In this document: positions 6,148 to 25,024 of the stretch, one piece after another
Layout of the letters: every line of letters begins with the position of its first letter
Position numbering within the stretch: position 1 is the stretch's first letter
DNA from: a virus
Taxonomy: Duplodnaviria > Heunggongvirae > Uroviricota > Caudoviricetes
Length of the DNA: 64,000 bases
IMG/VR virus record: IMGVR_UViG_3300045988_141797
Strand: one strand, 5' to 3'
Program-made: the position numbers and the translations under genes
The notes under the pieces: model-generated
Database searches by the model: none
Told to the model about the DNA's origin: nothing
What the model saw: the letters and a program-made list of their open reading frames with translations, nothing else

Positions 6148-9100
6148 TTAATCCTCCAGTAATTTGTCAAGAGATGGGTCATTGATAGTCGTGCTGGCAC
6201 GCTGACGAGGTTGTGGTTGTGATGTGTTCACAACTTTGTCCTGATCGCCTTTGCGGTTGTCTTTGCTTACGCCAAGAATCTCTTTAAGAACGGAATAAAC
6301 GTTCTCCAGTGCTTTCAACATAGCCGGATCGTTATTTGCGGTATCTGTTGTTAGCATCTGCCTTATTCCGCTTCGTGCGAGGTCCGTGACGATTGGTAGC
6401 TGCGGAGGCATTGCAAGGAACGGTTCTTTAGCAGCCACGCCCGAAGCAAACAGGCTTTGATTGATTGCGCCAGTTGTGTCCCTGATCGTATCCGCCGTTT
6501 TCTGTATGCCACCATTCAGCCAACCGCCAACACTCCTTGTTAACGGACTAATAGCGCGAGCAACATCGGTATTCTGTCCAGAGGACTGCAATACAAAGTC
6601 ATTTAACATTCCGGTGCTATCAATACCGCCCACAAGTCGCGAGAGGTTATCTCCAACGGCGGGGAGGACGGCGGAGCCTACCTGGTTAAGCCCTGACACA
6701 GTTGAATCAAATAGCGAGCCAAAGAAGCCCCTGTCCTCACCTTCAACCACCTTGTAGCCGTTGTCGTACATCTGCACACCCGCCGGTGTCGATGTGGCAC
6801 GCTTCTCGCTGATGGTTGCCGGACTCTCCGGAAGCAGGCCAATGGTTTCTGTATCGCGGTTAACGTTGCGCTTTTGCTGTATAGCCGTAGTGATATCGGC
6901 GATCTGTTCCGCCTTCTGGAAACTAAAGTTTTTGCCCGTTGCTCTGGATATTTTTTCAACAAGAAACTTATCCAATTGCTTGGCTTTTGCTGCTAACGAG
7001 GACATCTCTTCCGGAGAACTGACAGGGCCGAGATTTAGCCCCATATTGGGATCTCCCCCAACTATCCCGGCGATGACGCCCCCAACACCGTCTGCACTCA
7101 TTAACCGCTCCGTCAATCCGGCTGCGGCGGAAGAATTGCCACTAGCTTTCGCGTGGCTGATCGCTTGGGCATTTTCCTGTTGAGCTGCCTTCGGTTTTTT
7201 AGCTGCCTGTGCGTGTTGAACCACGTCAGTAGGGCTAGGCATTACAGCCTGGGCTACGCTTGACGCAGGAATAGCAGAAGATGAGCCGTTGGCGTATTTG
7301 ACTTTGCTACCGACACTATATTGGGAGTTGCGAGCGATTAGAGGACCGCCCTTTTCCTTCTGGATTTTATTAATGTGTTCCAGCGTTTCATCATTGAATT
7401 GCCCTTCCCAACGCCCAGTTTTAGCGTTGAATGAACCAAGAGCTGTTTTGATGAAATTGTTGTTAACCGCCGGGTTACCCCCCTCCTTCGTCGCAATAGC
7501 GCGAACAAGGTGCGTCATAACTTCAGGGTTGCTAACGTCTATTTTATCGTTGGGGGATACCCCTAGATATTTGCTGACGTTTTCAATGTACTGATTGGTG
7601 TTGTTCTCTGTTGGTGGTGCCCATTTTGAAATGATGCTGGATACTGTTTGCAGCTTCTGATACCCAGCGGCAGCACTTGTACCGTTGTAATAACTCGATA
7701 CCTGGTTTGCCAATGCCCGAATCCCTTCTTCGGGCGTATTAAACCGCGCAAAACGCTGTTCGCCTTTCGCGTTCGGCGCTTCCAGTACCGCCCCCTCCTG
7801 ATTTGCAAAAACCAGGTTCCCCAGGTTGTTATTCCGGTAATTCCTGTTCTTGGCGTTGCTTCCGCCTATATTCAGATCAGTCGTTATTGTATTTTTTTCA
7901 GGCGCTTTAAATTCGTCTGGCGATTTGTAGCCGTGTTCACCCACGCCATCCTCACCTCTGCGCCCGCCCTGTAGCTGTCGGGCCAGATCATTAATTGCGG
8001 CTACCGTTTGCTTGGTGCCATCTTCAACGGCTTTCTTAACCTGCGCAGTGCCTTCGCTGCTTGATGAGAACGATTCTTTTAGGCTGCTGAATGCGTTCTT
8101 CGACGCGTCGATAGAACTATTTATGCCGCGAGCAATATTGCTGGTATCAAGACTCTGAAGTTTTTGTCCGACACCTTCAAAGCCTAGCGCGGACATCCCC
8201 TCGCCAATGAGGTTAGCCGCTCCCGTCACCAGACCGCCCATATCCAGGACGTTAGCAGCGGCGTAGGCGCTCTTTTGCTGTGTTGTAACGTCCTGCCCTT
8301 CCTTCAGGTTATAAGTCGCCCTCTGCGCTTCTGTGTCGCTGTAGCCGTCTACGGCATCATAACCAACCATAGCCACCTGGCCGATGACTGGAATCGCCCT
8401 GAATCCGGCCCTTGCGGCAACACCTCCGGCAGCTTTGAGAGCCACTTTTCCAGCTTCTTTTTTCGCGATGTTTTCACCAGTGGCAACGGCAACCTTACCC
8501 GCCTCTTTCCTGGTAAGGCTTTCCCCAGCGGAAGTTGCCGCTTTACCAGCGTCTTTCCCTGCCGCTCCACCAGCCGCCGTTTTGGCTACGCTTTCTTGAG
8601 TGACCTTACCTGCTCTGGTTTTAACTGAAGATTTATCACCCGATGATTTTGGTGAGGTACTACCCTCGTTCCCACCAGCATTTTTTGTCCGATTTTTTTC
8701 CTCGCCCGCACTGTTGTTTTTGCCTGGCTGATTTTTTTTCCCCTCTTTGCCTTCCTGACTCCTGCCCGTCTCAGTAGGTTTGCTGGTGTTTTTTCCCTTC
8801 TTGCCCTTGTTTTCTTTACTGTCTCCAGTGCGGCCCGTGTTGCCACCACGTGCACTGCTACGACCGCGTGTAGGGGATATTTTGGTACGTAATCTGCCAC
8901 CGCCGAGGAGGTCGCTCAGTTTTAGCCCACTCTCCTGGGACTTTCTTAGCTTCCGGATCTCTTCGGATACAGTTTCCAGCTCATCAATTATCTGGCTGTC
9001 GTTGCGTTGAAGAACTTTCGTTTGTTCTTCGATCGCACGCACAGATTTTTCTTTAACGGCTTCAGTAAATGCCTTTGCTGAACCGGGCGCGTTATCTGGA

Positions 9101-10011
9101 GTCTTCCTTTCATTGTCAGGTGCCGGGTAAGTAATGGCGGGGGCTTTTGCGACCACCGGTGCGCCAGCCGCCTTGTCGTTGCCATTATCTATCCATTCTT
9201 TCAATGATTTAGCCTTACCAGTAATCTCGCGGCTGATATCAAATACGCCCCGTGCTGCCATCCATAGTGGACCACCAGCCCCTACCCCGGCAGCATCGGT
9301 TACAGCTCCATCGTCGGCTTTCCCTGAACCATCAACCCCCATAATGGAACCGAGTTTTCGCAGGAACCCAACCTGTAGTTTTGCCTGTGCGCGTAGCTCA
9401 TTCTGGCGTGCGAGATCCTCGTTTTTTTTCTGAGAGGCAAATCGTCCGTTGCTATCCCGTAACGGTGCACCAGCGATGCTCTGGTTTTCTCTAACTGGTT
9501 GTTCTTGCCTTGCAGGCTGAATGTCAGGAGTGAGCGATTGAATGCGCTCAGGTGATGACTTCGTGGCTTTGCCTTCAGCCAGCGGTGCTGTTTTTGATTC
9601 CGAATGAGCGGTGCGGTGATCTGCTGCTGCTTTTTGCGGATTATCTATCTCGCTAGTGTTGTTTATACGTAATCTCTGTTTCCTGGTAGGGAGCCGGTCT
9701 TTATACGGCCCCTGTGTGAAACTGTTGCGTTGCGCCCCTGCTTTCCCTGTTCGGGCCAGGCGACGACTTACGCGTCCTTGTGGTGCGTCGCTGGTATCAG
9801 GATTGCGTCCGTAAGACTCAAGTGCTTTTTTTATTTCTGAAAGCGCAGCTAGCTCTTTCGCGTTTGCCGTTTGTATTGCGTCGATTATCGCTATTCGGTC
9901 TTTTTTATCGTTCAAAATAACCTCACTTACATCGGCGGTGATCACCCTGTTTTTTTGGCGTGGGCTTTGTATTTCTCTTCCAGTGCTTTTTCCATATGGA
10001 GTGCCCGCCAC
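6148..10011 (-). CDS. tape-measure / injection-type large tail protein
   Basis: 1287 aa; long K/G/A-rich low-complexity repeats (KEAGKVA); globular block NNLGNL...SKWAPPTENNTNQY of unknown enzymatic type. Confidence 0.45.
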   Translation of the reverse strand: MAGTPYGKSTGREIQSPRQKNRVITADVSEVILNDKKDRIAIIDAIQTANAKELAALSEIKKALESYGRNPDTSDAPQGRVSRRLARTGKAGAQRNSFTQGPYKDRLPTRKQRLRINNTSEIDNPQKAAADHRTAHSESKTAPLAEGKATKSSPERIQSLTPDIQPARQEQPVRENQSIAGAPLRDSNGRFASQKKNEDLARQNELRAQAKLQVGFLRKLGSIMGVDGSGKADDGAVTDAAGVGAGGPLWMAARGVFDISREITGKAKSLKEWIDNGNDKAAGAPVVAKAPAITYPAPDNERKTPDNAPGSAKAFTEAVKEKSVRAIEEQTKVLQRNDSQIIDELETVSEEIRKLRKSQESGLKLSDLLGGGRLRTKISPTRGRSSARGGNTGRTGDSKENKGKKGKNTSKPTETGRSQEGKEGKKNQPGKNNSAGEEKNRTKNAGGNEGSTSPKSSGDKSSVKTRAGKVTQESVAKTAAGGAAGKDAGKAATSAGESLTRKEAGKVAVATGENIAKKEAGKVALKAAGGVAARAGFRAIPVIGQVAMVGYDAVDGYSDTEAQRATYNLKEGQDVTTQQKSAYAAANVLDMGGLVTGAANLIGEGMSALGFEGVGQKLQSLDTSNIARGINSSIDASKNAFSSLKESFSSSSEGTAQVKKAVEDGTKQTVAAINDLARQLQGGRRGEDGVGEHGYKSPDEFKAPEKNTITTDLNIGGSNAKNRNYRNNNLGNLVFANQEGAVLEAPNAKGEQRFARFNTPEEGIRALANQVSSYYNGTSAAAGYQKLQTVSSIISKWAPPTENNTNQYIENVSKYLGVSPNDKIDVSNPEVMTHLVRAIATKEGGNPAVNNNFIKTALGSFNAKTGRWEGQFNDETLEHINKIQKEKGGPLIARNSQYSVGSKVKYANGSSSAIPASSVAQAVMPSPTDVVQHAQAAKKPKAAQQENAQAISHAKASGNSSAAAGLTERLMSADGVGGVIAGIVGGDPNMGLNLGPVSSPEEMSSLAAKAKQLDKFLVEKISRATGKNFSFQKAEQIADITTAIQQKRNVNRDTETIGLLPESPATISEKRATSTPAGVQMYDNGYKVVEGEDRGFFGSLFDSTVSGLNQVGSAVLPAVGDNLSRLVGGIDSTGMLNDFVLQSSGQNTDVARAISPLTRSVGGWLNGGIQKTADTIRDTTGAINQSLFASGVAAKEPFLAMPPQLPIVTDLARSGIRQMLTTDTANNDPAMLKALENVYSVLKEILGVSKDNRKGDQDKVVNTSQPQPRQRASTTINDPSLDKLLED

Positions 10012-10062: not shown

Positions 10063-10887
10063 TTATTGATAATGGTTAGCCATCCATTCAGATCTAATTG
10101 ATGGGATAAATTCTCTATTGAGAAATGGGGCGTACAGCGTGGTAGTCACGTCTGCACCCTCCTTAGCGTTTTTGCAGCGTTGTGGCGGTAGGATCAGGCG
10201 GCTTGTGCCTCGTTCAATAGCCATTTTTAAGCCGTGGCGAAGGTCTTTCTGCATGAGCTGAATGCGAGCTACCAGAGGGGTAAACTCGGTTTCCAGAGCC
10301 ATGTTTTCAATGATATCGAATCGTCTGTTTGCAGCTTGTGTGAAGTCTTCTGGATCGTCGTTCAGAGATGTACACAAGGCCAACTCAGCTATGCGGAGAC
10401 GAGCAACCTCAGCACTGTACTCTGGAGTTTTCATATCAGGCAAAGTGGCGCGCATACGCTCAAGCAATTCAGCTCCTTTCCCTGTTAGTGGTTTAAGCGT
10501 CCACTCGGTTGGTACTCCGTTTATAGGGACCATAGTTTTAATAAACGGCGGGACAGTCAGGATTTCTACCGTTTCGGCAAGGTCTGAAAGGTTAATATCT
10601 GCGTGATGAACGTTTCCACAGTGACCACACTCGTATGAGTAAGTCATGACGGCATCAGGCCTGGAATTAACAAAGATCCACCAAAGCGCGGTTCTGCGAT
10701 CCTGAACTGTCCAGTTTGAGCTGTCGTTAATTTCGCCGTCTTGCATAGCATTGAGGTATTCTGTTGTGGTTGCCTCGTCTTCTGCCGGATTGATGTCTGA
10801 ATATTTCAGGGCATCTTTCACAGTAGGTGCATGAAACTGAATTTCTATTTCAGGCTGTGAAGGCAATGGGAATTTGGGAATGTTCAA
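10063..10887 (-). CDS. hypothetical tail-module protein
   Basis: 274-aa ORF immediately upstream of the tape-measure-like gene. Confidence 0.3.
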   Translation of the reverse strand: MNIPKFPLPSQPEIEIQFHAPTVKDALKYSDINPAEDEATTTEYLNAMQDGEINDSSNWTVQDRRTALWWIFVNSRPDAVMTYSYECGHCGNVHHADINLSDLAETVEILTVPPFIKTMVPINGVPTEWTLKPLTGKGAELLERMRATLPDMKTPEYSAEVARLRIAELALCTSLNDDPEDFTQAANRRFDIIENMALETEFTPLVARIQLMQKDLRHGLKMAIERGTSRLILPPQRCKNAKEGADVTTTLYAPFLNREFIPSIRSEWMANHYQ

Positions 10888-10929
10888 GGATTCCTCCGAA
10901 AGCTAGGTTCAGTTAGTTTTTCAGAGGAT

Positions 10930-11130
10930 AGGGAGTGTGTGATTTGTGGGAGTATTGAATAAGGATCTTTGTCGATCGAACAGCAACTATTGAGGGTGAT
11001 TTTTACACCTTAAGTGACGCAATTCACATATCCACAGAGTATTTTTATAAACCTTTTTCTCTTTTTAATCCTTTTTAGATCCTTTTTAGGCATCGCGGAG
11101 GCCAGGGGTGGCGGGGCTTGTAGAGGACCA
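10930..11130. other. putative plasmid-type replication origin region
   Basis: AT-rich, several GATC sites (gatctttgtcgatcgaac, tagatcc) and a DnaA-box-like ATATCCACA at about 11028-11036, directly upstream of the iterons. Confidence 0.45.
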
Positions 11131-11249
11131 AGGTGTAAGATTTGCCCTCAATTAAGCTATTGAGGTGTAAGATTTGCCCTCAGCAGGTGTAAGATTTGCC
11201 CTCAAAAGGTGTAGTAATTGCCCTCAAAGTGATGTAAAAATTGCCCTCA
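11131..11249 (+). repeat. five direct 20-bp iterons upstream of repA
   Basis: AGGTGTAAGATTTGCCCTCA at 11131, 11163, 11185 (exact), degenerate copies at 11207 and 11228; 22-bp spacing. Confidence 0.85.
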
Positions 11250-11273
11250 CCATTTGAAGGATCACACAGGGTT

Positions 11274-12029
11274 ATGAACAGAGCGGAATTAACGGCAAAA
11301 GCCGTCAGTCTGATTGAATCAGCGACACCAATTAGCCGTAGCTTGGCGCAGGCCAATGAGATCACAGAGGCGGCTTATCACCTGACACGCGACCAAAAGC
11401 GACTGTTGTTTATTGTGGTGGGAAGACTTCGCTATGCTTCTAAGGATGGCGTTCTTGGTTCAGGTGCCTGTGAGTTGACGGTCAACGAATATGCAGAGAT
11501 GTATAATTTGCCCTCTGCTGAAGCCAGCAAGGATATTCGTAAAGCTATCTCCGGACTTAGTGAGAAGAAAGTCACGATATATAACCCTGATGAATCAACC
11601 GAATCAGAAGACAGTTATGAGTCTTATCCCTGGATGATTAAGGAGGCTTACTCACCACGCCGGGGGACTTACATTATTCATCTGAATCCATATCTCATGC
11701 CGTTTTTTACTCTGCTTGATAAGAGGTTCACGAGGCTGAATTTTACTGAAGTGTCTCGCCTGACAAACCCTTATTCTATGCGGCTTTATGAGTCCTTATG
11801 CCAGTATAGAAAGGATGATGGGAGCGGCTTCGCTATACTTGGCGTTGAATGGATGCGGGAGCGTTATGGTCTTCCCAAAAGCTATCAACGGTACGCCGAA
11901 TTTAAGAGAAGCTTTCTGGCAAAAGCTGTAGCTGAAATCGAAAAAAACACAAAAATGAAAATAGTTTTCTCAGAGGTTACAGAAGGTGGCAGAGTTACAA
12001 AAATAAAATTCACCTATCAGCAGTCTTAA
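11274..12029 (+). CDS. repA: iteron-binding replication initiator
   Basis: Rep_3/RepE-like composition, flanked on both sides by its iterons; ORF-track start at 11241 would lie inside the iterons, so internal ATG 11274 preferred. Confidence 0.75.
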   Translation: MNRAELTAKAVSLIESATPISRSLAQANEITEAAYHLTRDQKRLLFIVVGRLRYASKDGVLGSGACELTVNEYAEMYNLPSAEASKDIRKAISGLSEKKVTIYNPDESTESEDSYESYPWMIKEAYSPRRGTYIIHLNPYLMPFFTLLDKRFTRLNFTEVSRLTNPYSMRLYESLCQYRKDDGSGFAILGVEWMRERYGLPKSYQRYAEFKRSFLAKAVAEIEKNTKMKIVFSEVTEGGRVTKIKFTYQQS

Positions 12030-12319
12030 GGGCAATTTCTACACCTCTCTGTAGGTGTAGGATTTGCCCTTAAAGATGGGAGATTGAGGGCAATTCTTAC
12101 ATCATTAGTTAGTTGGTTGGATCTTTAACGGCTAACATTATTTGTAATTTATTGATTAATAAGGAATGTGTAAAAATCACCCTCAGATGGCATCGTATGC
12201 TATAGCTATTTTTATCGCACTACTGTTGAATGTTTTATGGTTGTAACGCGTTGATTTTGTTGTGATGTGTAAAAAATGCCATCATTGACGTAAACAGCAG
12301 GTGTAGATATTGCCCTCAA
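12028..12319. repeat. second iteron set in both orientations (copy-control locus)
   Basis: iteron-like units at about 12028 (inverted), 12053, 12086 (inverted), 12166, 12262 (degenerate), 12299. Confidence 0.7.
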
Positions 12320-12360
12320 GTTTGCCCCTTCCCCACCTTCTCGCACTTTAATACTGCATT

Positions 12361-13098
12361 TCAAAACTTGATCACGTTGCTGGCGGCGCTTTTAAGTGCG
12401 CTTGTTGCTAAACCAGCAGCTCCATTGACTAATGCGGACAGGCCGGAACCGGCAGATGTGTATCGCTGGAACGTGATCGGATAGGACAAGAATTCGGACA
12501 CCTGATCACGTGAGCGGCTGATCTCTCCTATCTGAGTCGGAAATACACGCATTTCCTCTTCCAGCTCTTTCCCGCCTTCCTGTGTAACGCGGTATAGCCT
12601 GATATTCATGAGATAATCTGGCGGCAGGTTTAGCGTACCATCGCTATTGGTTACACGAGCGCGGCGCTCTTTGAACCAATTCATTATTTTGCCGTCTTCT
12701 GTGTCTCTGACCGTCATTGTTACCGGCCCGGCGGTTACGTGCGTTGGCTTATTGAACTCGACGCTACCAATGATTTTGCTTTCTGTTTCAATATTCCCGC
12801 TACTGTAAGTGATGTCCTTAACGAACATATCAAAGCCGCTTAATCCGTCTACGTCTACCGTCCACTGCCAGCCCTGGGCATAGCGGATACGCATAGCCGT
12901 AGCAACTACGTTCTTTCCGTAAGCGATGTCATTGCCGTAGCTCCCACTAACGCCACTGCCAGACACCGCTCTATCCAGAATGTCGCTGATAAGGTTGCTG
13001 GTGAACGATTTCGCGCTAAACGATACCGCACTGGCTAGCGTTTGCGTTGTAGCACTAAAAATACTCACGTAGCCCTCCGTGTTAAAAAATGGTAGCAC
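12361..13098 (-). CDS. virion structural protein, hypothetical
   Basis: 245-aa ORF in structural gene string. Confidence 0.3.
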   Translation of the reverse strand: MLPFFNTEGYVSIFSATTQTLASAVSFSAKSFTSNLISDILDRAVSGSGVSGSYGNDIAYGKNVVATAMRIRYAQGWQWTVDVDGLSGFDMFVKDITYSSGNIETESKIIGSVEFNKPTHVTAGPVTMTVRDTEDGKIMNWFKERRARVTNSDGTLNLPPDYLMNIRLYRVTQEGGKELEEEMRVFPTQIGEISRSRDQVSEFLSYPITFQRYTSAGSGLSALVNGAAGLATSALKSAASNVIKF

Positions 13099-22481: not shown

Positions 22482-23441
22482 ATGATGCGCATTTTTATCG
22501 ACGATGGTTCTACCAATATCAAAATGCTGTGGGAACAAGACGGGGAAACTCGAACCCATATCTGTCCGAACAGTTTTAAACGTGGATGGTCCGCCACATT
22601 TGGCGCAGGAAAGCCGTTTAACTACATCATTGATGACGAAAAATATTCATATGACTTGATTTCGCCGGATGTGCTGCCGACGAATAATGTGGAATGGCAA
22701 TACAGCCCGCTTAATGTGCTTGCTGTTCATCATGCCCTGCTTACAAGTGGCATTGAGCCTCAAGAAGTGGAAATAGTTGTCACGTTGCCACTGGCAGAGT
22801 TTTATGACGACGACGCACAATACAACATGAAAAATATTGAGCGGAAAAAGGCCAGCCTGATGCGACCAGTCACCCTTAACAAAGGTCAGGTTTTTACTAT
22901 CAAAAAAGTGACTGTGCGCCCGGAGTCAATACCCGCAGGGATCGGTCTGTGCGACAGCCTTGTGCCAGCGCATTCTGTGCTTATTGTTGATCTTGGTGGG
23001 ACTACTCTGGATGTGTCGATGGTCGCCGGGCAAATGACCGCCGTTTCTCGCGTATTTGGCGATTCTAATCTCGGCGTTTCGCTGGTAACTAAAGAGGTCA
23101 GACAGGCACTTGCAAAAGCGAATACCGAAACCTCTAATTATAATGTCGATCAATTAATCATTAATCGTGATGATGAGGATTATTTGACCGACAATATTAA
23201 CGATCCGTCTGCTATTGATGATGTTAAGAAAGCCATTTCGTCAAGCATAGAACGACTCCGTACACGCGTACTGGATGTGATCAGTGATTTCAAAGGATAC
23301 ACGCATGTTATGGTCATTGGTGGCGGCGCGCCGCTTGTTGCTGATGCTATCCGTGAGCAGGTAAACATTCGTGACGATAGGTTTTTCGTTGCTGATGATC
23401 CACAACTTGCTCTTGTCTATGGTCTAAAATCTATCGGTTGA
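22482..23441 (+). CDS. parM: actin-like plasmid segregation ATPase
   Basis: N-terminus MMRIFIDDGSTNIK...PNSFK and VLAVHHALLTSG match the ParM/StbA family; GGAG RBS. Confidence 0.85.
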   Translation: MMRIFIDDGSTNIKMLWEQDGETRTHICPNSFKRGWSATFGAGKPFNYIIDDEKYSYDLISPDVLPTNNVEWQYSPLNVLAVHHALLTSGIEPQEVEIVVTLPLAEFYDDDAQYNMKNIERKKASLMRPVTLNKGQVFTIKKVTVRPESIPAGIGLCDSLVPAHSVLIVDLGGTTLDVSMVAGQMTAVSRVFGDSNLGVSLVTKEVRQALAKANTETSNYNVDQLIINRDDEDYLTDNINDPSAIDDVKKAISSSIERLRTRVLDVISDFKGYTHVMVIGGGAPLVADAIREQVNIRDDRFFVADDPQLALVYGLKSIG

Positions 23442-23451
23442 TGAGGTTGCC

Positions 23452-23817
23452 ATGTCTCAGGAACGTCGAAAAGTATTGTTTTATCTTCGTCCTGGTCTTA
23501 ACGCCAGTGAGCAATATGCTGATGCAAAACTTGAGGGCCATCCATTAAGAGATCGCAATGATATGGCGCGCACAGCGATGCTTGCAGGTATCGCTCTTGG
23601 CGAGGTTGATAGCAGATTACCTCCCATGTTGGCATCGCTTTTATCCGGTGATAATAGCCCTGAAGTGATCAGAAAAATGCTGGTTTCATTTCTTGAAATT
23701 TCGCCTGAAGTTCGGGAAAACCCTGAAGGAAACCCCTCAGCCTCAGCGGATGTTAAAAAACCTGGCGTTTCGAAAAGCCGCTCTGCACAGAATTTGGCAA
23801 ACTCACTCCCTGATTAA
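23452..23817 (+). CDS. parR: ParR-like centromere-binding adaptor
   Basis: 121 aa immediately downstream of parM; N-terminal RHH-like region, acidic/disordered tail. Confidence 0.6.
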   Translation: MSQERRKVLFYLRPGLNASEQYADAKLEGHPLRDRNDMARTAMLAGIALGEVDSRLPPMLASLLSGDNSPEVIRKMLVSFLEISPEVRENPEGNPSASADVKKPGVSKSRSAQNLANSLPD

Positions 23818-23879
23818 CAAATCTACATCTTCAAAGGCTGCAATTTGCAGCCTTTTTTATACTGTTATGGTTCTAATTT

Positions 23880-23935
23880 GGTGCTCTTTTAGTACCAAAA
23901 CGGTGTTGTTGTGGTGCTGTTTTGTGTCTGGTTCC
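23880..23935. repeat. centromere-like repeats upstream of parA
   Basis: AGTACCAAAACGGTGTTGTT and a related GTGGTGCTGTTTTG unit. Confidence 0.5.
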
Positions 23936-24102
23936 ACTTTGAGGCTGATTTCGTGTTAAACAGGATGCAACAGAGGGCAAATTTCGAGTGTTTAGTGTTA
24001 TACTTTTGCAAAGCATAGTGACTCCACTATAGAGCCAAAACCGCATCAATAAGGCTTCTGTTTGGAGCCATTTTGATACCAAAATAACACCGAGGGACGG
24101 AT

Positions 24103-24744
24103 ATGATTATATTGGTAGCCAGCCAAAAAGGTGGCTGTGGCAAATCAACCACCAGCGTAAACATTTGTGCGGAGCTTGCCCGCGCAAATAAGGACGTAGT
24201 TCTACTTGATGCAGATAAGCAAGGAACATCTGCCCGTTGGGCATCGGACCGTAATGCGGCAGAGGTTTCTCCAGTAATTCATTGCGTCCAGAAGTTTGGG
24301 AATATTCGTGAAACACTTCTTGATCTGGACAAGCGTTATGAATTTGTGGTTGTTGATACCGCTGGTCGTGATAGCAAAGAGATGCGCACCGGTATTACTG
24401 CGGCGGATGTTTTGCTTGTTCCATTCAGGCCATCTCAGCCAGATTTAGACACGCTGGCGCATTTTGTTGAAGTCTTTGAAGAGGCTTTGGATCTGATGCC
24501 TAATCCTAGCATTAAGGCGTGCGCAGTTTTAACAATGGCCCCATCCAATCCGGTTGTGAATGAAGCCAATGAGGCCAAAGAGTACCTGGCTGAATATCCG
24601 CAACTGAAGTTGCTGAAAACCATCATTCGCGATCGCAAGGTTTACCGCGATTGTATGGCTGAAGGGAAGGGCGTTGTTGAGATGGACAACGGGAAAGCTA
24701 AAGGTGAAATCCAGATGTTGGTTAAGGAGTTATTAAGTGATTAA
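24103..24744 (+). CDS. parA: small Walker-type partition ATPase (type Ib ParA/ParF-like)
   Basis: deviant Walker A KGGCGKST, 213 aa. Confidence 0.8.
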   Translation: MIILVASQKGGCGKSTTSVNICAELARANKDVVLLDADKQGTSARWASDRNAAEVSPVIHCVQKFGNIRETLLDLDKRYEFVVVDTAGRDSKEMRTGITAADVLLVPFRPSQPDLDTLAHFVEVFEEALDLMPNPSIKACAVLTMAPSNPVVNEANEAKEYLAEYPQLKLLKTIIRDRKVYRDCMAEGKGVVEMDNGKAKGEIQMLVKELLSD

Positions 24745-25024
24745 GCCTCGTAAATCGGTAAAAGCCCCCGAAGTAAAAGACCTCGATCTTGAACGCCGAA
24801 TTGAGGCTTTTGCCAGCAAAGCTGATTTGGTGCCGGGTGAGCAACCAGAAGACAACAAAGTGCTCGATAAGGACGCCCCACGTGATTTTAAATCCATTCG
24901 TGTTGGCTTCAATGAATACGAGTACCAGGTACTTGATGCGTTAAGCAAAAAGCATAATCGCAGCAAATTGAATATGATCCGCCATGCTATCCTCATGCTT
25001 GCAGAGTCTGAGGATACAAAATGA
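24737..25024 (+). CDS. small ParG/ParB-like partner with RHH-like C-terminus
   Basis: 95 aa, overlap-coupled to parA. Confidence 0.5.
   Translation: MIKPRKSVKAPEVKDLDLERRIEAFASKADLVPGEQPEDNKVLDKDAPRDFKSIRVGFNEYEYQVLDALSKKHNRSKLNMIRHAILMLAESEDTK

Follow-up and report, generated by a model that had tools for sequence, protein, structure and literature searches.

A 1.47-kb cassette at about positions 10888-12360 of the 64,000-nucleotide stretch of phage DNA analysed here (the window) is very probably the replicon that maintains the prophage of a phage D6-like, P1-related phage-plasmid of E. coli. It is best described as a theta-type, iteron-controlled replicon whose initiator (Pfam Rep_3, winged-helix WH1-WH2) and origin belong to the RepE/ori2 lineage of the F plasmid. 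The feature is real and appears to be functional, an iteron replicon distinct from that of P1 residing inside a P1-like phage. The D6-like replicon is already known from annotations in public records, and its initiator and origin are related by descent to F RepE/ori2 and not to P1. The locus is an annotated replication module of well-sampled phage-plasmids of E. coli, Salmonella and Shigella, with a textbook iteron mechanism, and its discovery value is small. The anatomy of the cassette, its homologies, its sequence conservation, the purifying selection on its initiator gene and its plasmid-only carriage are observations of the present analysis.

Organization of the origin, repA and the iterons

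The cassette is bounded by a pmgB homologue on the left and a tub homologue on the right, and its transcription is antisense to that of the late genes. The features of the locus, together with the partition genes of the same element, are the following.

10063..10887, minus strand: pmgB homologue, a late morphogenesis gene, left flank (41% identity to P1 PmgB, E = 6e-72; D6 annotation)
10991..11008, minus strand: upstream inverted iteron, variant GTGTAAAAATCACCCTCA (motif match; inverted repeat, 95% complementary)
11020..11036, plus strand: DnaA box ATATCCACA (11028-36, 8/9 match) with a degenerate tandem box 5' of it
11040..11089, plus strand: AT-rich element of 50 bp, 80% AT, with four CTTTTTA-type repeats and one GATC (11078), read from the sequence
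11090..11130, plus strand: GC-rich spacer between the AT-rich element and the first iteron, 35% AT
11131..11249, plus strand: origin iterons, five direct 20-mers at 11131-50, 11163-82, 11185-204, 11207-26 and 11230-49 (motif and repeat search)
11274..12029, plus strand: repA, a 251-aa RepE-family initiator (Rep3_N and Rep3_C, corresponding to WH1 and WH2)
11499..11516, plus strand: iteron-like site inside repA, ATGTATAATTTGCCCTCT, codons M-Y-N-L-P-S (repeat search)
12027..12318, both strands: downstream iteron cluster, presumed copy-control/incompatibility locus (motif and repeat search), with copies at 12027-44 (minus), 12055-72 (plus), 12085-102 (minus), 12168-85 (plus) and 12301-18 (plus) and a degenerate copy at 12267-84 (plus)
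12361..13098, minus strand: tail-tube (tub) homologue, right flank (43% identity to P1 Tub, E = 2e-53)
22485..25024, plus strand: partition loci, with ParM and a StbB-like protein at 22485-23817 and a small ParA-type ATPase and a 95-aa partner ORF at 24103-25024

The iteron motif TGTARNWWTYRCCCTYA has 11 matches in the window against 0.06 expected by chance; all of them lie within 10991-12318, and the rest of the 64 kb contains none. The exact 18-mer GTGTAAGATTTGCCCTCA occurs three times (11133, 11165 and 11187), and seven times when up to three mismatches are allowed (0.04 expected). Three of the five origin iterons are identical and the two closest to repA have diverged; their spacing is 32, 22, 22 and 23 bp. 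A comparable array abuts rep in phage D6 and in the relatives L007, L009, L011 and L012. The upstream inverted iteron (10991-11008) has the same sequence as the downstream copy at 12168-85 in the opposite orientation, so that the two bracket the origin and repA. This upstream copy is kept in D6, and L009 carries inverted copies at the equivalent place. At the codons of the site inside repA, L009 and L011 (RepA 72% and 64% identical, respectively) show a perfect match to the motif, and comparison with F repE revealed no such site there. The original prediction mentioned neither the upstream inverted iteron nor this intragenic site.

On the far side of the gene, the first downstream iteron (12027-44) overlaps the repA stop codon. 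Since the downstream repeats have the same motif as the origin iterons, they are predicted to be RepA sites. An Rfam scan of positions 10500-12700 returned no known regulatory RNA, only sub-threshold microRNA and snoRNA matches, two of which fall on the palindromic iteron pair at 12027-12072.

The origin core contains only one good DnaA box, and a strict scan with the consensus TTWTNCACA found no perfect box in the origin. Two matches to this consensus, at 12167 and 12266, were rejected as DnaA boxes; they are the left halves of iteron-like sites. In each of the six relatives compared, the same distance separates a TTATCCAC-type box from the AT-rich element. The AT-rich element is presumed to be the DNA-unwinding element, and the GC-rich spacer that follows it has a comparable counterpart in F and in all relatives compared. 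There are three GATC sites in the origin (10964, 10974 and 11078), only one of which is in the AT-rich element. At least three GATC sites are found in about 1.6% of the 200-bp windows of the present sequence, and the origins of L009 and L012 have none. A GATC enrichment representing a P1-like Dam-control feature was consequently rejected, the sites being only three and not conserved in the relatives.

The original prediction of an iteron plasmid replicon ordered as origin iterons, repA and a second iteron cluster is borne out, and the downstream set was correctly described as running in both orientations (12027-12318). Its five 20-bp direct iterons stand, and their supposedly uniform 22-bp spacing does not. 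Likewise, the origin does have a DnaA box (a single 8/9 match) and is AT-rich (80% over 50 bp), and the claim that it is GATC-rich fails. The predicted repA is a genuine gene encoding 251 aa, with both Pfam Rep3 domains above their cut-offs.

The initiator, its carrier and the evidence for function

RepA scores 103.1 bits against Rep3_N (cut-off 22.4; E = 2.2e-29) and 56.8 bits against Rep3_C (cut-off 21.1; E = 2.7e-15). The presence of both domains, together with iterons beside rep, a DnaA box and an AT-rich region, assigns the system to the Rep_3/RepE type. Aligned over 228 residues, RepA and RepE of the F plasmid are 50% identical (E = 2e-86), to an even degree in both domains, and the best PDB matches are F RepE chains (about 1e-73), with R6K Pi and pPS10 RepA distant next. 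Against the NCBIfam RepE equivalog NF010305, RepA reaches 281.4 bits and thus falls below the cut-off of 342; this explains why PGAP names it 'RepB family plasmid replication initiator protein' and not RepE. It also means that regulatory details of RepE, for example dimer-operator repression, may not carry over.

The closest known phage is D6. The two RepA proteins are 98.4% identical, the DNA of the locus is about 90% identical, and the cassette, like D6 orf42, is flanked by homologues of pmgB and tub; orf42 carries in the D6 record (NC_050154/MF356679) the annotation 'replication initiation protein; similar to P1 gene repA?; pfam01051'. The origin iterons of D6 have the same sequence and positions, and its downstream iteron sites are the same; the downstream spacers are merely 53% identical, so that the megablast alignment ends at window position 12107. 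D6 differs by a 46-bp insertion containing P1-type iteron-like sequences that the window does not have. Seven complete E. coli plasmids (89-93 kb) match the locus (10900-12360) with 100% identity, and PLSDB contains three of them. Further relatives from metagenomes and genomes, with RepA 78, 72, 64 and 57% identical and with differing genomic contexts, keep the same plan: one or more DnaA boxes are accompanied by an AT-rich element and a GC-rich spacer, five or six direct iterons stop just short of the ATG, and inverted iterons occur at the stop codon or beyond it. The layout recurs in D6, L007, L009, L011 and L012, across RepA identities of 57-98%.

A gap of 14 bp separates pmgB from tub in P1, whose replicon is elsewhere; the D6 lineage therefore has a self-contained 1.47-kb cassette at the pmgB-tub junction. 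The partition genes of the present element, recognized by Pfam (StbA_N/ParM 2e-69, Plasmid_stab_B 3e-14 and ParA-type ATPase families) and also annotated on a plasmid with the 100% identical replicon, lie about 10 kb from the replicon and are of types other than those of P1. This distance agrees with the work of Pfeifer et al. (PMC7969092), in which replication and partition are co-localized in P1-g1, and 14 persistent genes lie between them in the D6 subgroup, P1-g2. In the D6-like element pYU39_89, also of P1-g2, a 'repB associated with iteron sequences' has been described (PMC6799933).

Several observations bear on whether the cassette is in use. Between the window and D6, repA shows 55 synonymous and four non-synonymous codon differences, and the gene appears to be under strong purifying selection. 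In the downstream non-coding DNA, the iteron columns (degenerate copy 12267-84 included) are 90% identical to D6 and the spacers 53% (Fisher p = 1.3e-11). Among 5426 complete E. coli genomes, 94 carry the locus in 101 places, all of them on plasmids and none chromosomal. No other Rep gene was found in the examined part (about 65 of 92 kb) of a matching plasmid.

These data can be set against the idea that the cassette is a decaying or auxiliary remnant, another origin maintaining the prophage, or that the downstream repeats serve a role other than copy control, for example that of a centromere. Such a reading would be in line with the lack of a strong repA promoter (see below), with the antisense position of the cassette within the late-gene block and with the location of the partition genes elsewhere. 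It is opposed by the codon pattern of repA, the selective conservation of the iterons amid diverged DNA, the retention of the module across relatives with RepA 57-98% identical, its restriction to plasmids in the 94 genomes, the absence of a second Rep gene from the examined parts of the matching plasmid, and the motif that the downstream repeats share with the origin iterons. We consider a remnant highly improbable, and a working replicon for prophage maintenance is the interpretation that we retain.

Proposed mechanism and control of repA

By homology with mini-F we infer each biochemical step described here, as well as autonomous replication, the promoter position and the incompatibility behaviour. 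RepA monomers would occupy the five direct iterons and host DnaA the adjacent box or boxes. The two proteins would then jointly melt the 50-bp AT-rich element, which would allow the host helicase and replisome to load. The six downstream iterons would act by titrating RepA and by pairing with their counterparts in the origin (handcuffing or looping), leading to low copy number and incompatibility, as do F incC and P1 incA; the downstream cluster (12027-12318) is presumed to be analogous to these two loci. The upstream inverted iteron, as a member of the flanking CACCCTCA-variant pair (10991-11008/12168-85), probably joins in both titration and handcuffing.

As in P1, repA would most likely be autoregulated by RepA occupying the promoter-proximal iterons. 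The 24 bp that separate the last iteron from the ATG contain no F-type operator, and the single inverted repeat there has arms of 5 bp, which is why P1-style autorepression through iterons is favoured. It would nevertheless be the least secure step of the model. The D6-clade relatives all likewise have no operator inverted repeat between iterons and rep. A consensus scan found no sigma-70 promoter for repA on the plus strand, and a weight-matrix scan gave nothing above background near repA, the same scan recovering the F repE promoter at 11.4. The best candidate within the iterons, TGn-AAAAAT at -38 inside iteron 5, scores no better than background; its position is kept in D6 and L007. Elsewhere, a P1 late-promoter-like sequence upstream of pmgB was dropped, given its loose TTCAATA resemblance and its lack of a -10 element.

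A more specific proposal can be formulated for the D6 clade as a whole (RepA 57-100% identical, iteron (A/G)TGTARNNNYTGCCCTCA), although we regard it as tentative and rather doubtful. The clade could constitute a distinct incompatibility and regulatory variant of mini-F that has lost the RepE dimer operator and relies on purely iteron-based autoregulation as in P1, with a conserved iteron in the rep coding sequence and an inverted pair bracketing origin and rep. The P1-type RepA iterons that flank the replicon in some members (D6 and L007, not the window) might then have a decoy function against IncY P1 prophages resident in the same cell. The literature searched contained no description of operator loss, an intragenic iteron, a bracketing pair or P1-type iterons for a D6-clade replicon, nor any experimental study of the D6-type replicon (the D6 genome paper, PMC5800970, lay outside that search). 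Operator loss, the intragenic iteron and the P1-type iterons beside the replicon in some relatives are where residual interest lies.

Comparison with the P1 and F replicons

The resemblance to P1 is one of layout. In both cases five origin iterons abut repA, a second iteron cluster follows the gene and a DnaA box is placed at the far side of the origin, and the carrier here is a P1-like myovirus prophage; the annotated repA promoter of P1 sits inside its origin iterons. This layout is common to the iteron replicons of F and P1 generally and does not by itself indicate P1 ancestry. A true P1-type (IncY) replicon, namely a diverged homologue of P1 oriR, RepA and incA inherited vertically with the P1-like phage body, would account for the P1-related carrier, for the order of five origin iterons, rep and second cluster annotated in P1, and for iterons that abut rep without a separate operator. 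The proteins argue otherwise: homology to P1 RepA was rejected, since BLASTP gave no meaningful alignment (E = 0.056), as against 2e-86 for F RepE. Allowing up to two mismatches, nothing in the 64-kb window matches the P1 iteron core GTGTGCTGGAGGGAA, and the 19-bp P1 iteron GATGTGTGCTGGAGGGAAA is unrelated to the present ones. P1 has five clustered Dam (GATC) sites in its origin, nine incA iterons and an adjacent parABS locus, and here the five-site cluster and the adjacent parABS are missing. Finally, the P1 replicon is located between upfA and parA, near gene 23 and parS, whereas the present one is between pmgB and tub. A P1-type replicon is thus extremely improbable, and P1-type descent is effectively refuted at the sequence level.

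The designation 'P1-type replicon' in the original prediction consequently holds for the mode of working and not for the family by descent, the locus being an F RepE/ori2 relative that has neither the five-GATC cluster nor an adjacent par. The same prediction rightly anticipated that RepA and the iterons would differ from those of P1, and the near-identity to P1 or P7 RepA that it named as evidence to the contrary did not emerge from the alignment. The carrier does have a P1-like body, with flanks 41-43% identical to P1 pmgB and tub and a match of the window to phage D6. The type distinct from that of P1, which it considered probable, is in agreement with the literature, where P1-like elements have the replicon types IncY and p0111 and D6-like elements fall under neither (bioRxiv 10.1101/2025.09.12.675607; PMC7969092). 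Identity with the p0111 replicon is unlikely in view of this literature and of PLSDB typing, and D6 repB and p0111 repA have been screened as separate genes (bioRxiv 10.1101/2025.09.12.675607).

Typing assigns P1-like elements to IncY or p0111, whereas the D6 replicon is absent from common plasmid-typing databases (bioRxiv 10.1101/2025.09.12.675607), and D6-like elements therefore go untyped. A RepE/ori2 relative with an iteron of its own would be a clean marker for them. Whether it is compatible with the IncFIA, IncY and p0111 elements that often occur in the same hosts is a testable question, and the locus offers an example of replicon swapping at different sites in an otherwise syntenic phage backbone.

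The closest parallels are with F. Its replicon comprises a pair of DnaA boxes, an AT-rich region containing a 13-mer, four iterons, the repE gene and its operator inverted repeat, and the five iterons of incC, which limit copy number and cause incompatibility (PMC13028717). A mini-F plasmid has been built from a 1430-bp F replication element (PMC13028717), approximately the size of the present cassette. Alignment of the present origin to F ori2 pairs the DnaA box (ATATCCAC versus TTATCCAC in F) as well as TATTTTTATAA and TTTTTAGATC in the AT-rich element, and the single box with its degenerate neighbour is in a position equivalent to that of the two tandem boxes of F. The 3' half of the iteron, TTGCCCTCA, is common to the F iteron TGTGACAAATTGCCCTCA and to the present iterons, and the variant copies GTGTAAAAATCACCCTCA have 12 consecutive bases (AAATCACCCTCA) in common with F ori2 iteron 2. 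Both replicons also have a GC-rich spacer, an iteron overlapping or directly following the rep stop codon, a second iteron cluster downstream and a size of about 1.4-1.5 kb.

The differences from F are nonetheless substantial. The 5' half of the iteron is GGTGTAAG or ATGTARNA here and TGTGACAA in F, so that only the 3' half of the 19-bp F iteron TGTGACAAATTGCCCTCAG is recovered. There are five origin iterons versus four in F, and the last of them is 24 bp from the repA ATG, where F has a promoter/operator segment of about 98 bp with an inverted repeat. The downstream iterons are of mixed orientation, whereas the F incC copies were all found inverted relative to those of ori2; an extra inverted iteron lies upstream of the DnaA box, unlike in F; and no counterpart of the F sopABC locus adjoins the replicon.

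These comparisons bear directly on the possibility that the locus is a true IncFIA (F ori2/RepE) replicon, which would be functionally interchangeable with F-type plasmids and incompatible with them. F RepE is indeed the closest characterized relative of RepA, and the shared iteron 3' half and the 12-base match of the GTGTAAAAATCACCCTCA variants point the same way. However, the identity is only 50%, the 281-bit score is below the 342-bit equivalog cut-off, the iteron 5' half differs, and both the F operator inverted repeat and an adjacent sopABC are absent. The matching plasmid is typed in PLSDB as rep_cluster_1704 and not as IncFIA. In addition, the identical replicon co-occurs with an IncFIA/FIB/FIC plasmid in strain 2021CK-00607, which hints at compatibility with F; this is weak evidence from one strain, because a multi-replicon F plasmid can use its other replicons. 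An IncFIA replicon proper is in our view very improbable. By sequence criteria the replicon is neither IncY nor IncFIA, and its origin is homologous to F ori2 in a sense that goes beyond analogy.

P1-type iterons next to D6-type replicons

In two relatives, phage D6 and the metagenomic L007, P1-type (IncY) RepA iteron sequences with the core GTGTGCTGGAGGGAA adjoin the D6-type replicon.

P1-type iteron sequences (core GTGTGCTGGAGGGAA)
L002 (phage D6), about 7450-7500
L007, 3705-3719, 4838-4852, 4890-4904, 5069-5083, 5232-5246 and 5249-5263

The D6 sequences are carried by a 46-bp insertion relative to the window, at window position ~12345. Six P1-type iterons are present in L007, whose RepA is 78% identical to that of the window, and five of them are interspersed among the relative's own iterons downstream of rep. 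The same core has no match in the window at up to two mismatches. The P1-type iterons of D6 and L007 could be decoy or incompatibility sites directed against P1-type prophages, or they could be relics of a replaced replicon.

The L007 relative lies on an 87-kb contig, adjoining a 2234-aa SNF2/helicase protein, and it is also neighbored, on a second contig, by a 998-aa ddrB-ParB protein (neighbourhood loci: L007 and L008 7727-8756; L008 1-177). These neighboring genes are unlike those of the window, and the same replicon type is thus found in a different context in L007.

Late genes and partition modules around the cassette

Features of the window outside the replicon
6148-10011, (-) strand, 1287-aa ORF, counterpart of the P1 sit-like "tail injection transglycosylase" or tape-measure protein
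22485-23817, partition module with an actin-type ParM and a StbB-like protein
24103-25024, partition module with a small ParA-type ATPase and a 95-aa partner

In P1, the late genes pmgB and tub are only 14 bp apart (L006 44492-45999), whereas in the window they are separated by the replicon (10888-12360), which is antisense to both. With the cassette so placed and oriented, late transcription to pmgB and sit would need either to cross the replicon or to restart past it; the search for a late promoter ahead of pmgB in the window found none. The long ORF to the left of pmgB has a central part consisting of a long low-complexity segment rich in Lys, Gly, Ala and Ser. The two partition modules, which are unlike each other, are adjacent and located ~10 kb from the replicon.

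Iteron copies within repA and bracketing the origin

Iteron-related sites
Window 11499-11516, iteron-like sequence inside repA, codons M-Y-N-L-P-S
L009 4229-4246 and L011 3217-3234, perfect intragenic iteron in two relatives
Window 10991-11011 and 12165-12185, arms of a 21-nt inverted repeat, 95% complementary

The M-Y-N-L-P-S codons form a perfect iteron in L009 and L011, even though their RepA proteins are only 64-72% identical to that of the window, and F repE lacks this site. The sequence at 11499-11516 could be a genuine intragenic RepA site or a mere product of coding constraint.

The arms of the inverted repeat are two copies of the iteron variant CACCCTCA and enclose the origin, repA and, of the downstream iterons, the three closest to the gene, an arrangement also kept in D6. 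The last 12 bases of this variant are identical to those of iteron 2 of F ori2.
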